Below, piece after piece: positions 56,028-63,591 of a stretch of 64,000 nucleotides of DNA. A model generated the notes under the pieces. That model was not told where the DNA came from. It did not search any database and was given only the letters and a program-made list of their open reading frames with translations. The translations under genes were made by a program, and so were the position numbers. The stretch is from Octopus vulgaris (taxonomy: Eukaryota), in assembly GCA_951406725.2 (NCBI GenBank), contig OX597815.1, positions 209,746,001-209,810,000 on the forward strand, written 5' to 3'. Within the stretch, counting starts at the first letter, position 1, and every line of letters starts with the position of its first letter.

Positions 56028-56065
<38 letters not shown>

Positions 56066-56069
<4 letters not shown>

Positions 56070-58086
56070 CCATTCACCCACTAGAAATAACAGCCAAAGC
56101 TTCTACCGCAAATAAAGATCAATTCCGTAAACAGGAGAAAATTAAAAAAACATTTACCCTGTAATTTCTTGTACGGTATACCGTTTCATCTGCTGTTTAA
56201 TGGTAAACTAACCTGATTAAATTAAATCAAGCCAATCTTCCATAAGCCCTCAGATTCTTCAGCAAGAAATAGCTCAAGTCGGAACAGATATTTACACGAG
56301 GCATACCCAATCCTGCCAAGGCAATATCTGACCTAAAATTTTCAAATCGTCGCACTCGCGCCAAATTTATCGGCAGCAAATAAATCGTCGATTCCATTAC
56401 GGAATTAACCAAAAAATTCATAATTAATCAATATAGGGTGGCAAGGAAAATTTTGTAGAATTTTTTTGCCACCAGCGGCCCAGTGGGAAAAAATTAAATA
56501 GTCATAGACCATTTTTAAGTTCAACATTAACAATTAAGGAACGGCCATAATAGGCCATTCACCCACTAGAAATAACAGCCAAAGCTTCTACCGCAAATAA
56601 AGATCAATTCCGTAAACAGGAGAAAATTAAAAAAACATTTACCCTGTAATTTCTTGTACGGTATACCGTTTCATCTGCTGTTTAATGGTAAACTAACCTG
56701 ATTAAATTAAATCAAGCCAATCTTCCATAAGCCCTCAGATTCTTCAGCAAGAAATAGCTCAAGTCGGAACAGATATTTACACGAGGCATACCCAATCCTG
56801 CCAAGGCAATATCTGACCTAAAATTTTCAAATCGTCGCACTCGCGCCAAATTTATCGGCAGCAAATAAATCGTCGATTCCATTACGGAATTAACCAAAAA
56901 ATTCATAATTAATCAATATAGGGTGGCAAGGAAAATTTTGTAGAATTTTTTTGCCACCAGCGGCCCAGTGGGAAAAAATTAAATAGTCATAGACCATTTT
57001 TAAGTTCAACATTAACAATTAAGGAACGGCCATAATAGGCCATTCACCCACTAGAAATAACAGCCAAAGCTTCTACCGCAAATAAAGATCAATTCCGTAA
57101 ACAGGAGAAAATTAAAAAAACATTTACCCTGTAATTTCTTGTACGGTATACCGTTTCATCTGCTGTTTAATGGTAAACTAACCTGATTAAATTAAATCAA
57201 GCCAATCTTCCATAAGCCCTCAGATTCTTCAGCAAGAAATAGCTCAAGTCGGAACAGATATTTACACGAGGCATACCCAATCCTGCCAAGGCAATATCTG
57301 ACCTAAAATTTTCAAATCGTCGCACTCGCGCCAAATTTATCGGCAGCAAATAAATCGTCGATTCCATTACGGAATTAACCAAAAAATTCATAATTAATCA
57401 ATATAGGGTGGCAAGGAAAATTTTGTAGAATTTTTTTGCCACCAGCGGCCCAGTGGGAAAAAATTAAATAGTCATAGACCATTTTTAAGTTCAACATTAA
57501 CAATTAAGGAACGGCCATAATAGGCCATTCACCCACTAGAAATAACAGCCAAAGCTTCTACCGCAAATAAAGATCAATTCCGTAAACAGGAGAAAATTAA
57601 AAAAACATTTACCCTGTAATTTCTTGTACGGTATACCGTTTCATCTGCTGTTTAATGGTAAACTAACCTGATTAAATTAAATCAAGCCAATCTTCCATAA
57701 GCCCTCAGATTCTTCAGCAAGAAATAGCTCAAGTCGGAACAGATATTTACACGAGGCATACCCAATCCTGCCAAGGCAATATCTGACCTAAAATTTTCAA
57801 ATCGTCGCACTCGCGCCAAATTTATCGGCAGCAAATAAATCGTCGATTCCATTACGGAATTAACCAAAAAATTCATAATTAATCAATATAGGGTGGCAAG
57901 GAAAATTTTGTAGAATTTTTTTGCCACCAGCGGCCCAGTGGGAAAAAATTAAATAGTCATAGACCATTTTTAAGTTCAACATTAACAATTAAGGAACGGC
58001 CATAATAGGCCATTCACCCACTAGAAATAACAGCCAAAGCTTCTACCGCAAATAAAGATCAATTCCGTAAACAGGAGAAAACATTT
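56066..58086 (-). mobile_element. 485-bp hammerhead (retrozyme-like) tandem array, left block, about 4.2 units
   Basis: Exact 485-bp period (ORF track repeats at 56227, 56712, 57197, 57682). Starts directly after (TA)n at TAGGCC. Confidence 0.95.
56164..56270 (-). ncRNA. Type I hammerhead ribozyme (also at 56649-56755, 57134-57240, 57619-57725)
   Basis: Reverse complement of the motif described at 58314-58420. Confidence 0.92.
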
Positions 58087-61000
58087 TATTTTAATTTTTT
58101 CCCACTGGCGTGGTGCAAAAAAATTCTACAAAATTTTCCTTGCCACCCTATATTGATTAATTATGAATTTTTTGGTTAATTCCGTAATGGAATCGACGAT
58201 TTATTTGCTGCCGATAAATTTGGCGCGAGTGCGACGATTTGAAAATTTTAGGTCAGATATTGCCTTGGCAGGATTGGGTATGCCTCGTGTAAATATCTGT
58301 TCCGACTTGAGCTATTTCTTGCTGAAGAATCTGAGGGCTTATGGAAGATTGGCTTGATTTAATTTAATCAGGTTAGTTTACCATTAAACAGCAGATGAAA
58401 CGGTATACCGTACAAGAAATTACAGGGTAAATGTTTTTTTAATTTTCTCCTGTTTACGGAATTGATCTTTATTTGCGGTAGAAGCTTTGGCTGTTATTTC
58501 TAGTGGGTGAATGGCCTATTATGGCCGTTCCTTAATTGTTAATGTTGAACTTAAAAATGGTCTATGACTATTTAATTTTTTCCCACTGGGCCGCTGGTGG
58601 CAAAAAAATTCTACAAAATTTTCCTTGCCACCCTATATTGATTAATTATGAATTTTTTGGTTAATTCCGTAATGGAATCGACGATTTATTTGCTGCCGAT
58701 AAATTTGGCGCGAGTGCGACGATTTGAAAATTTTAGGTCAGATATTGCCTTGGCAGGATTGGGTATGCCTCGTGTAAATATCTGTTCCGACTTGAGCTAT
58801 TTCTTGCTGAAGAATCTGAGGGCTTATGGAAGATTGGCTTGATTTAATTTAATCAGGTTAGTTTACCATTAAACAGCAGATGAAACGGTATACCGTACAA
58901 GAAATTACAGGGTAAATGTTTTTTTAATTTTCTCCTGTTTACGGAATTGATCTTTATTTGCGGTAGAAGCTTTGGCTGTTATTTCTAGTGGGTGAATGGC
59001 CTATTATGGCCGTTCCTTAATTGTTAATGTTGAACTTAAAAATGGTCTATGACTATTTAATTTTTTCCCACTGGGCCGCTGGTGGCAAAAAAATTCTACA
59101 AAATTTTCCTTGCCACCCTATATTGATTAATTATGAATTTTTTGGTTAATTCCGTAATGGAATCGACGATTTATTTGCTGCCGATAAATTTGGCGCGAGT
59201 GCGACGATTTGAAAATTTTAGGTCAGATATTGCCTTGGCAGGATTGGGTATGCCTCGTGTAAATATCTGTTCCGACTTGAGCTATTTCTTGCTGAAGAAT
59301 CTGAGGGCTTATGGAAGATTGGCTTGATTTAATTTAATCAGGTTAGTTTACCATTAAACAGCAGATGAAACGGTATACCGTACAAGAAATTACAGGGTAA
59401 ATGTTTTTTTAATTTTCTCCTGTTTACGGAATTGATCTTTATTTGCGGTAGAAGCTTTGGCTGTTATTTCTAGTGGGTGAATGGCCTATTATGGCCGTTC
59501 CTTAATTGTTAATGTTGAACTTAAAAATGGTCTATGACTATTTAATTTTTTCCCACTGGGCCGCTGGTGGCAAAAAAATTCTACAAAATTTTCCTTGCCA
59601 CCCTATATTGATTAATTATGAATTTTTTGGTTAATTCCGTAATGGAATCGACGATTTATTTGCTGCCGATAAATTTGGCGCGAGTGCGACGATTTGAAAA
59701 TTTTAGGTCAGATATTGCCTTGGCAGGATTGGGTATGCCTCGTGTAAATATCTGTTCCGACTTGAGCTATTTCTTGCTGAAGAATCTGAGGGCTTATGGA
59801 AGATTGGCTTGATTTAATTTAATCAGGTTAGTTTACCATTAAACAGCAGATGAAACGGTATACCGTACAAGAAATTACAGGGTAAATGTTTTTTTAATTT
59901 TCTCCTGTTTACGGAATTGATCTTTATTTGCGGTAGAAGCTTTGGCTGTTATTTCTAGTGGGTGAATGGCCTATTATGGCCGTTCCTTAATTGTTAATGT
60001 TGAACTTAAAAATGGTCTATGACTATTTAATTTTTTCCCACTGGGCCGCTGGTGGCAAAAAAATTCTACAAAATTTTCCTTGCCACCCTATATTGATTAA
60101 TTATGAATTTTTTGGTTAATTCCGTAATGGAATCGACGATTTATTTGCTGCCGATAAATTTGGCGCGAGTGCGACGATTTGAAAATTTTAGGTCAGATAT
60201 TGCCTTGGCAGGATTGGGTATGCCTCGTGTAAATATCTGTTCCGACTTGAGCTATTTCTTGCTGAAGAATCTGAGGGCTTATGGAAGATTGGCTTGATTT
60301 AATTTAATCAGGTTAGTTTACCATTAAACAGCAGATGAAACGGTATACCGTACAAGAAATTACAGGGTAAATGTTTTTTTAATTTTCTCCTGTTTACGGA
60401 ATTGATCTTTATTTGCGGTAGAAGCTTTGGCTGTTATTTCTAGTGGGTGAATGGCCTATTATGGCCGTTCCTTAATTGTTAATGTTGAACTTAAAAATGG
60501 TCTATGACTATTTAATTTTTTCCCACTGGGCCGCTGGTGGCAAAAAAATTCTACAAAATTTTCCTTGCCACCCTATATTGATTAATTATGAATTTTTTGG
60601 TTAATTCCGTAATGGAATCGACGATTTATTTGCTGCCGATAAATTTGGCGCGAGTGCGACGATTTGAAAATTTTAGGTCAGATATTGCCTTGGCAGGATT
60701 GGGTATGCCTCGTGTAAATATCTGTTCCGACTTGAGCTATTTCTTGCTGAAGAATCTGAGGGCTTATGGAAGATTGGCTTGATTTAATTTAATCAGGTTA
60801 GTTTACCATTAAACAGCAGATGAAACGGTATACCGTACAAGAAATTACAGGGTAAATGTTTTTTTAATTTTCTCCTGTTTACGGAATTGATCTTTATTTG
60901 CGGTAGAAGCTTTGGCTGTTATTTCTAGTGGGTGAATGGCCTATTATGGCCGTTCCTTAATTGTTAATGTTGAACTTAAAAATGGTCTATGACTATTTAA

Positions 61001-62036
61001 TTTTTTCCCACTGGGCCGCTGGTGGCAAAAAAATTCTACAAAATTTTCCTTGCCACCCTATATTGATTAATTATGAATTTTTTGGTTAATTCCGTAATGG
61101 AATCGACGATTTATTTGCTGCCGATAAATTTGGCGCGAGTGCGACGATTTGAAAATTTTAGGTCAGATATTGCCTTGGCAGGATTGGGTATGCCTCGTGT
61201 AAATATCTGTTCCGACTTGAGCTATTTCTTGCTGAAGAATCTGAGGGCTTATGGAAGATTGGCTTGATTTAATTTAATCAGGTTAGTTTACCATTAAACA
61301 GCAGATGAAACGGTATACCGTACAAGAAATTACAGGGTAAATGTTTTTTTAATTTTCTCCTGTTTACGGAATTGATCTTTATTTGCGGTAGAAGCTTTGG
61401 CTGTTATTTCTAGTGGGTGAATGGCCTATTATGGCCGTTCCTTAATTGTTAATGTTGAACTTAAAAATGGTCTATGACTATTTAATTTTTTCCCACTGGG
61501 CCGCTGGTGGCAAAAAAATTCTACAAAATTTTCCTTGCCACCCTATATTGATTAATTATGAATTTTTTGGTTAATTCCGTAATGGAATCGACGATTTATT
61601 TGCTGCCGATAAATTTGGCGCGAGTGCGACGATTTGAAAATTTTAGGTCAGATATTGCCTTGGCAGGATTGGGTATGCCTCGTGTAAATATCTGTTCCGA
61701 CTTGAGCTATTTCTTGCTGAAGAATCTGAGGGCTTATGGAAGATTGGCTTGATTTAATTTAATCAGGTTAGTTTACCATTAAACAGCAGATGATACGGTA
61801 TACCGTACAAGAAATTACAGGGTAAATGTTTTTTTAATTTTCTCCTGTTTACGGAATTGATCTTTATTTGCGGTAGAAGCTTTGGCTGTTATTTCTAGTG
61901 GGTGAATGGCCTATTATGGCCGTTCCTTAATTGTTAATGTTGAACTTAAAAATGGTCTATGACTATTTAATTTTTTCCCACTGGGCCGCTGGTGGCAAAA
62001 AAATTCTACAAAATTTTCCTTGCCACCCTATATTGA

Positions 62037-62044
<8 letters not shown>
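58087..62044 (+). mobile_element. 485-bp hammerhead (retrozyme-like) tandem array, right block, about 8.2 units
   Basis: Exact 485-bp period (ORF repeats from 58163 to 61558). Ends at ATTAATTAT running into (TA)n. Confidence 0.95.
58314..58420 (+). ncRNA. Type I hammerhead ribozyme (also at 58799, 59284, 59769, 60254, 60739, 61224 and a core-mutant copy at 61709)
   Basis: Stem I ATTTCTTG (58314-21)/CAAGAAAT (58413-20); core CTGAAGA (58322-28); stem II ATCTG/CAGAT with a 58-nt loop; GAAA (58397-400); stem III CGG-TATA-CCG; GUA triplet with cleavage predicted after 58412. Confidence 0.92.
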
Positions 62045-62067
<23 letters not shown>

Positions 62068-62454: not shown

Positions 62455-62520
62455 ACATGCATATATACACGAAATGTGTTAATAGAATATTCATGGAGTT
62501 TGCCATAAGGCTAAATCTAA

Positions 62521-62790
62521 TGTTGTAGGTTATACAAAGGTGAAACATGCCGTCCCCTCAAAATAAGGGTAGAGAAACATCGCAAAGCTGTGACACGAGG
62601 AGATATTGATAAATCGGGTATAGCTGATCGTGTATGGAAAAATAGAGACCACCTCTCTGTGTGCGATGAAGTTAAGATAATAGACAGAGAACATCAATGG
62701 AAAATACGAAAACTAAAAGAAGCACCACATATGCTAGGACGCAATAACCTCCTAAGCAGACCGAGTGGAGATATGAATAGCATATGGTAA
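62521..62790 (+). pseudogene. Penelope-like element GIY-YIG endonuclease C-terminal fragment
   Basis: The frame from 62521 reads CCRLYKGETCRPLKIRVEKHRKAVTRGDIDKSGIADRVWKNRDH..DEVKIIDRE..KIRKLKEA, matching the YIGET / R..EH / S.IA.H / R..KE pattern. Confidence 0.88.
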
Positions 62791-62977
62791 CCGGTATTAA
62801 GGAAGGATAGGAAAATATTAAATTTATAAGCCCTAAAATTCATTCCATCATTGCCCGCGGGCATATGGTGTGATGGTTAAGAGCGCTACTATCTCCAAGA
62901 TTCCTAGGTTAGTAATAATAATAATAACATCAAAAAATACCTTAGGAATGAGAGTCCAGGTTCGAAATTTCCCCAAG

Positions 62978-63020
62978 ACACCTGATGAAGGCTGGAGAGT
63001 ATATCAGCCGAAACATTGTG
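62978..63020 (+). ncRNA. PLE pLTR minimal hammerhead (probably decayed)
   Basis: CAC-CTGATGA-A-GGCTG(gagagtatat)CAGCC-GAAA-CA-TT-GTG. Stem III reads ACAT, one change from palindromic ACGT. It lies downstream of the PLE endonuclease. Confidence 0.7.
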
Positions 63021-63591
63021 GTAACAACAAACAAGGTGTGGACAAATATCCGTGAAATGTAAATAATGTAAATGTTTGCATGTGTTATAGAAAACGTACT
63101 ATTGAGAAAATAAAATAAGATGAAAGTGTTGGAAATTATATTTTGCTAATGCGTCCTAAGGTTTTGTCACAGTGTAAATATTGATGCGCAGACTGGAAAG
63201 AAAATAACTTTGAAGTAGGTTTATTTTAATTTAAAAAATGAATAAGCCTAGAATTCCCAGAAGACATCATACCGTCATGAATCATACTTAAGAGTAATCT
63301 TCTTTTACTAATGTCTTTCTTTTTCATACATTGAATTTAGTTTTATAAACTATTTTAAGCATTCATTATTTATTTAAAATTTTATCAATTTTCAGATCAC
63401 TCGAGACCTTTGGTGTGTATTGGAAGGGTTTGATTGATTGCAATTAATTGCTAATAATATGATGAAACAATGCTGTGAGGGAGAAAACTATATAGACAAA
63501 AAGGTACAAAGAGAAAAAGACTTAGAGGTGATATAATGGAAACAATAGAGATTAGATGTCATAAAAACAAGTTAATGGCTTGTGTACACAT

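Follow-up and report, generated by a model that had tools for sequence, protein, structure and literature searches.

The analysed window is a stretch of 64,000 nucleotides of the Octopus vulgaris genome (NCBI GenBank assembly GCA_951406725.2, contig OX597815.1, positions 209,746,001 to 209,810,000 of the forward strand). At 56066-62044 it contains repeats of a 485-bp non-coding unit with type I hammerhead ribozyme motifs, which resemble the animal retrozymes without long terminal repeats (non-LTR retrozymes). Two arrays with a 485-bp period were called by Tandem Repeats Finder at 56065-58081 and at 58090-62044, between (AT)18 on one side and (TA)13 on the other; they form two arms in opposite orientation that point apart inside a (TA)n microsatellite. 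An earlier interpretation of the same DNA, made without database searches (the sequence-only reading), had described a single array with an exact 485-bp period; the period was confirmed, but the array consists of two opposed arms with an 8-nt filler and deletions at their join. Unit positions are counted from 58413, the base after a predicted cut, as position 1. The features of the locus are:

56031-56067, no strand: left (AT)n target microsatellite (Tandem Repeats Finder)
56066-58081, minus strand: left arm, 4.16 units, 100% identical, with 4 intact hammerheads
57627, 57142, 56657 and 56172, minus strand: predicted cuts of the left arm
58082-58114, no strand: central 5'-5' junction, an 8-nt filler followed by three small deletions that open the right arm
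58090-62044, plus strand: right arm, 8.15 units, 99.9% identical, with 7 intact hammerheads and 1 core mutant
58314-58420, plus strand: type I hammerhead with stem I at 58314-58321/58413-58420, the core at 58322-58328, stem II at 58329-58333/58392-58396, GAAA 58397-58400, stem III up to 58411, predicted cut after 58412
58413-58897, plus strand: one cut-to-cut monomer of 485 nt
58530-58543, plus strand: end site 1 (unit position ~131), directly 3' of a hairpin; putative start site of reverse transcription
58632-58649, plus strand: end site 2 (unit position ~237), lying 106 nt away from site 1 and directly 3' of another hairpin, with a motif like that of site 1; putative start site of reverse transcription
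61709-61815, plus strand: final hammerhead of the right arm, with GAAA>GATA at 61794 and no predicted activity
62042-62067, no strand: right (TA)n target microsatellite (Tandem Repeats Finder)

Most informative about the array are two features that the sequence-only reading missed, namely its head-to-head layout and the pair of fixed end sites. The right arm ends on its outer side at unit position 237 (site 2), and the left arm at about position 107, where site 1, the usual end, is missed by 24 nt and a TAT microhomology is present. The unit has a G + C content of about 0.36 and contains no open reading frame (ORF) for a reverse transcriptase (RT) or a GIY-YIG endonuclease, the longest stop-free frame being 66 aa. 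The sequence-only reading had likewise described the units as essentially identical and as lacking a transposase or RT. Their length, which had been placed at the long end for such elements, exceeds the 170-400 nt given in the available text of PMC7229834, but falls within the 51-972 bp given in that of 10.64898/2026.07.22.740005.

When the whole window was scanned with a descriptor on both strands, 11 intact type I hammerheads were found, seven on the plus and four on the minus strand, where 12 had been counted; the twelfth is the GATA mutant. Each motif consists of an 8-bp stem I, CUGAAGA, a 5-bp stem II, a 58-nt loop II, GAAA, a 4-bp stem III and a GUA site. Apart from stem III, which was scanned as 4 bp instead of CGG/CCG, these parts and the predicted cut agree with the earlier description. 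Dinucleotide shuffling of the unit, repeated 5000 times, never yielded an equally good motif and yielded a loose one nine times. The Rfam search proposed by the sequence-only reading, however, returned no hammerhead, neither for the whole window at the gathering score nor for one unit at E<=10, where four chance matches alone were obtained; the 58-nt loop II is the probable reason. The circular monomer folds with -146.0 kcal/mol, compared to -105.8 +/- 5.0 for 60 shuffles and -95.9 for the opposite strand, so that better-than-shuffle folding is confined to the ribozyme strand. For 58300-58430 the predicted minimum-energy fold is the active hammerhead.

The dispersed family and its ribozyme

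The genome searched comprises 2.8 Gb in 227 contigs. As the sequence-only reading had suggested, the unit was matched against it and was found to be one of a family scattered over the genome, with identical (100%) copies of the unit on many contigs and with three subfamilies (474-491 bp, about 70-100% alike). Subfamily A, which has the 485-bp unit, gave at least 266 matches (best 40 of 1334 candidates), and the 27-nt 3' half of the ribozyme has 212 exact copies, compared to 0 for the control. For subfamily B (491 bp, about 88-90% alike) at least 194 matches were obtained (best 40 of 1087 candidates), and subfamily C (474 bp, about 65-72% alike depending on the alignment) is represented by 414 matches to a 21-nt motif. 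A motif meant for all subfamilies fitted mainly C (323 matches), hence no total copy number is given. The arrays are dispersed, multi-copy and without LTR structure; primer-binding sites and polypurine tracts were not searched for separately. One insertion with its flanks occurs twice in opposite orientation, 360 kb apart (L057 and L058 on C30, at 20.60 Mb and 20.24 Mb), and represents a segmental duplication or an assembly duplicate. Sequencing runs labelled with two other organisms contain 0.31-0.61 of the words of the unit.

When motifs were anchored on the loop II hairpin, 316 of 331 could be parsed, all with the core kept except for one GATA, and the other 15 are either truncated or carry point mutations. 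Between subfamilies whole base pairs are exchanged in stem I (G-C/A-U and C-G/U-A), in stem II (G-C/A-U, with a double swap in 2 loci) and in stem III (G-C/A-U/U-A). The foot of stem II is mismatched in subfamily C, and the outer stem II pair is missing from 34 B motifs. An RNAalifold consensus of 11 units contained 99 pairs, nine of them with two-sided changes, but not the hammerhead, owing to misalignment of subfamily C in that region; this is why the anchored extraction was used to count the stems. As judged from these sequence comparisons, the ribozyme is under selection and is kept by compensatory changes in all three stems.

Non-LTR retrozymes are defined in PMC7229834, which in its available text names Penelope-like elements (PLEs) as the likely mobilizer and gives unit lengths of 220-240 bp in coral, 350-390 bp in mussel and 330/350 bp in axolotl. 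The octopus family shares with them non-coding tandem units with one type I hammerhead each, a G + C content of about 36%, a strongly folded monomer, dispersed arrays, and PLEs in the same genome. It differs by its 58-nt loop II and in being known from DNA sequence alone. Literature searches, which mostly excluded subscription papers and the supplement of PMC7229834, retrieved no paper that treats this family or describes junctions of the PLE type in animal retrozymes, and the available text of PMC5680766 likewise contains nothing on this family. By comparison with Rfam and this literature, the array is classified as part of a young, dispersed non-coding family of the animal non-LTR retrozyme kind, new as a member of an element class that is already known.

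Insertion ends and junctions

Ends were mapped at 59 loci chosen by best full-unit match (40 of subfamily A including the window array, and 20 of B, with L058 dropped as the duplicate of L057); a separate B copy inside L060 was set aside. Among the 105 outer ends, 51 lie at unit positions 128-136, 50 at 230-243 and four elsewhere, which places 101 of them inside two windows that together cover 23 of the 485 unit positions. (TA)n adjoins 102 of the 105. Forty-six loci were scored as two-armed and 13 as one-armed, although some of these 13 do possess a second arm, of a length that escapes BLAST. Both ends are located at the two sites in 42 of the 46 two-armed loci, and all 42 pair site 1 on one arm with site 2 on the other (binomial p 2e-13). 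The remaining four, including the window array (107/237), have one displaced end each. The same two sites were read by eye at 20 loci picked with subfamily C motifs. Both sites lie 3' of a hairpin and have a similar short motif in common. Microhomology was rejected as the cause of the end sites, since the unit has its best (TA)n microhomologies elsewhere, at 222-226 and 477-480. In two loci (L046:7180-7397 and L062:4272-4500) the outer units are full of small deletions and (TA)n patches, which look like repeated slippage of the first cDNA stretch or its repair.

The inner junctions are scattered across the unit (Kolmogorov-Smirnov (KS) test against uniform, p 0.06). The lengths of the 92 arms fit an exponential distribution (KS p 0.27) with a mean of 1357 and a maximum of 6980.

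This layout resembles insertions of endonuclease-bearing PLEs, which according to the available text of PMC8557442 and PMC3846280 have an inverted 5' copy and a one-sided 30-40-bp tail. Shared features are the head-to-head arms, the AT-rich or microsatellite target, and a choice between two 3' ends that lie downstream of the hammerhead, one per arm. Two internal RT start sites with extension of both strands are also described in the available text of PMC11167929 for the PLE protein PAc in vitro. In contrast to PLE insertions, the octopus unit has no ORF, its tail measures 106 nt, its hammerhead is canonical instead of minimal, and its arms are built as multimers of a small unit. MRC1 and similar non-autonomous elements of Chlamys, as far as described in the available text of PMC8557442, are similar in being non-coding PLE passengers with multicopy head-to-tail insertions. 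For animal non-LTR retrozymes, no description of a head-to-head layout with two fixed ends was met in the available text of PMC7229834 and 10.64898/2026.07.22.740005; the latter, a vertebrate survey, relies on co-occurrence and similarity to PLE pseudo-LTRs (pLTRs), and no junction analysis was found in that text.

Penelope-like elements of the genome

A GIY-YIG search returned many identical 781-aa frames, and RVT_1 and GIY-YIG domains were confirmed for the 781-aa protein. Three further PLE families have intact frames of 775, 784 and 775 aa. The four families, which share 45-68% mutual identity, all sit in (TA)n and all carry the CX4CXXC linker given for Neptune and Nematis in the available text of PMC8557442, by which they are classified as Neptune/Nematis-type. 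Their loci are:

L096 (C6), L126 (C3), L136 (C9) and L213 (C2): four PLE families with intact 775-784-aa RT/GIY-YIG frames

A separate upstream frame is present in at least three of the families, and one family has about 150 copies that are identical over 201 aa among the matches listed. In loci selected for having two arms, a near site on one arm is combined with a far site on the other in 7/7, 5/5 and 3/3 cases for three families, and the same layout was read by eye at one locus of the fourth. The PLE tails measure 32-38 nt, and the sites lie 58-171 nt past minimal hammerhead-like motifs that were read by eye; as likewise read by eye, three families carry variant minimal hammerheads with U3-A8 or C4 cores. 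Autonomous PLEs also occur as two or three head-to-tail copies with a 4.3-4.4-kb period (C1:27841626-27850770, L136 and L126), and look as if they too had been copied from circles or long tandem transcripts.

Comparison of the unit with one element of each of the four families revealed no significant similarity (best E 0.026-0.09 over 18-31 nt); a further family, L069 (58% aa identity), lay outside this comparison. By the criterion of similarity the unit is thus not a direct derivative of a pLTR of these four families, unlike the ~21 matches in Xenopus given in the available text of 10.64898/2026.07.22.740005. The best PLE match, which lies at site 1 and covers 17 of 18 nt on the antisense strand of the 781-aa ORF (E 0.09-0.5), was taken as chance. 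The 775-aa family that is youngest by identity has the closest cut-to-site distance (139 compared to 131 nt in the retrozyme) and is weakly favoured as the copying enzyme. The window itself contains at 62480-63070 an old PLE 3' remnant of a very abundant broken family, with a GIY-YIG fragment at 62524-62787 and a degenerate hammerhead-like motif near 62982-63025. It was rejected as partner because of the age of its family (77-87% aa identity; among 150 matches the longest open frame has 362 aa).

Mechanism, template and alternative explanations

The array is interpreted as a recent retrozyme insertion into a TA microsatellite, likely made by a PLE RT-endonuclease and probably from a circular RNA monomer (estimated probability about 0.7). 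Mobilization by a PLE taken by itself is held with high confidence. The sequence-only reading had likewise proposed a young non-LTR retrozyme moved by a Penelope-like RT; the near-identical dispersed loci, the conserved ribozyme and the PLE-type junctions support this more strongly than that reading was able to. Arrays would be transcribed, the hammerheads would release monomers of ~485 nt, and a host ligase would close them into circles. A Neptune/Nematis-type PLE protein, probably a dimer, would then bind the RNA and cut both (TA)n strands. The target ends would prime at the fixed sites ~131 and ~237, one per strand, as the observed footprint suggests, and each cDNA would lap the template for a random distance, with a mean of about 1.4 kb and up to 14 units. 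The two truncated ends are joined centrally with small overlaps, fillers or deletions. At somewhat less than even odds, the process would be a double rolling-circle target-primed reverse transcription, with a Neptune-type PLE dimer that sits on one 485-nt circle and copies up to 14 laps per strand. This circle would lack PLE sequence, and copying would start at two duplicated hairpin-plus-motif sites 106 nt apart.

Two further explanations concern the way in which the unit spreads and the origin of the inversion. Satellite-like spread at the DNA level, by unequal exchange, extrachromosomal circles or break-induced foldback and with the hammerhead as a relic of a PLE pLTR, would agree with the local amplification of pLTR ends proposed in the available text of 10.64898/2026.07.22.740005, and the variation within L060 described below may reflect gene conversion. 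The 42 of 42 one-per-arm ends, the random inner junctions, the (TA)n target and the compensatory ribozyme changes would be unexpected under such spread, and the end statistics largely refute it, so that it is regarded as very improbable. The inversion could also be an assembly or long-read foldback artefact, to which the small deletions at the window junction would be suited and for which it counts that no read was found across this junction, contigs alone having been examined. The arms, however, are not mirror images (their lengths, phases and end sites differ), and the same rule holds at 46 separate loci with differing junctions, which leaves almost no likelihood for an artefact.

A more serious competitor concerns the template, for which circular RNA is the probable choice. 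At sites with at least three units per locus in the 40 A loci, 54 substitutions are fixed, four are partial and 55 are singletons, and variants confined to one sampled locus are fixed through both arms in L049, L054 and L061. Near-clonal units and the arm lengths fit what would be expected if one small circle were copied from two starts. The same family and the same PLE enzyme could instead have used a linear multimeric transcript of the parent array, uncut or partly cut, with the hammerhead merely trimming 5' ends or serving another role. Such RNA would hardly account for the rarity of partial variants (4 compared to 54 fixed) despite many haplotypes, for locus-specific variants that extend over both arms, or for the precise internal unit junctions; moreover, daughter arms could not exceed the parent, yet arms of 10-14 units exist. 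The linear template is considered unlikely, though far less so than satellite spread. End-to-end template jumping at the cut site is disfavoured by the precise internal junctions as well.

Several observations weigh against the preferred insertion of a circular monomer by a PLE. Fourteen of the 92 inner ends, some of them on arms several units long, lie <=25 nt past the cut site compared to 4.7 expected (p 2.5e-4, with the 25-nt window set after viewing the data), and this excess also fits partly cut linear RNA. Linear RNA would further accommodate L060, whose array is mosaic at two sites without a period and is left unexplained by one clonal template, and L044, in which both units carry a core mutation. 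It would also be in line with the predicted folding of the full unit, whose minimum lies 3.9 kcal/mol below the active fold and where stem I forms with a probability of 0.01, and with the in vitro insertion by PAc, which according to the available text of PMC11167929 is independent of hammerhead cleavage and had uncut RNA as its main substrate. Eight of nine predicted retrozyme dimers remained uncleaved in vitro, as stated in the available text of 10.64898/2026.07.22.740005. In addition, the unit lacks significant similarity to the four intact families, so that none of them stands out as the partner by sequence, the 106-nt tail of the retrozyme is about three times as long as a PLE tail, and the arm lengths are biased because loci were chosen by best full-unit match.

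The L060 array (L060:837-9168, 14.4 + 2.8 units) shows C/T 9:7 at position 253 and A/G 11:5 at position 349 in all four combinations, for which gene conversion, collapsed alleles, template switching or an edited base are candidates.

Mobilization of animal retrozymes by PLEs has previously been argued from co-occurrence and pLTR similarity, and the mechanism has so far been proposed rather than demonstrated; here the junctions carry a PLE footprint, and the junction record is clear. With four intact enzymes as candidates, and with a defined template on which two putative start sites are mapped, a single genome allows direct in vitro tests of the identity of the enzyme that copies retrozymes and of the circularity of its template. 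If true, double rolling-circle copying would show how animal ribozyme circles enter DNA and would point to structural template recognition by PLEs.

The unit is present in 19 of 22 rows of sequencing data; 14 of these 19 were guessed to be RNA and none is recorded as such. Contigs of runs X1, X2, X4 and X7 cover it. In X1, X2 and X4 the unique stretch 63148-63590 is almost uncovered and a neighbouring repeat is covered far deeper. The coverage therefore fits general repeat read-through, which is uninformative on circles, and was not used as evidence. One X1 contig (run type only guessed) contains a cluster of eight A>G changes at 59229-59299, which may represent A-to-I hyper-editing or a variant copy; head-to-head arrays would form long double-stranded RNA.

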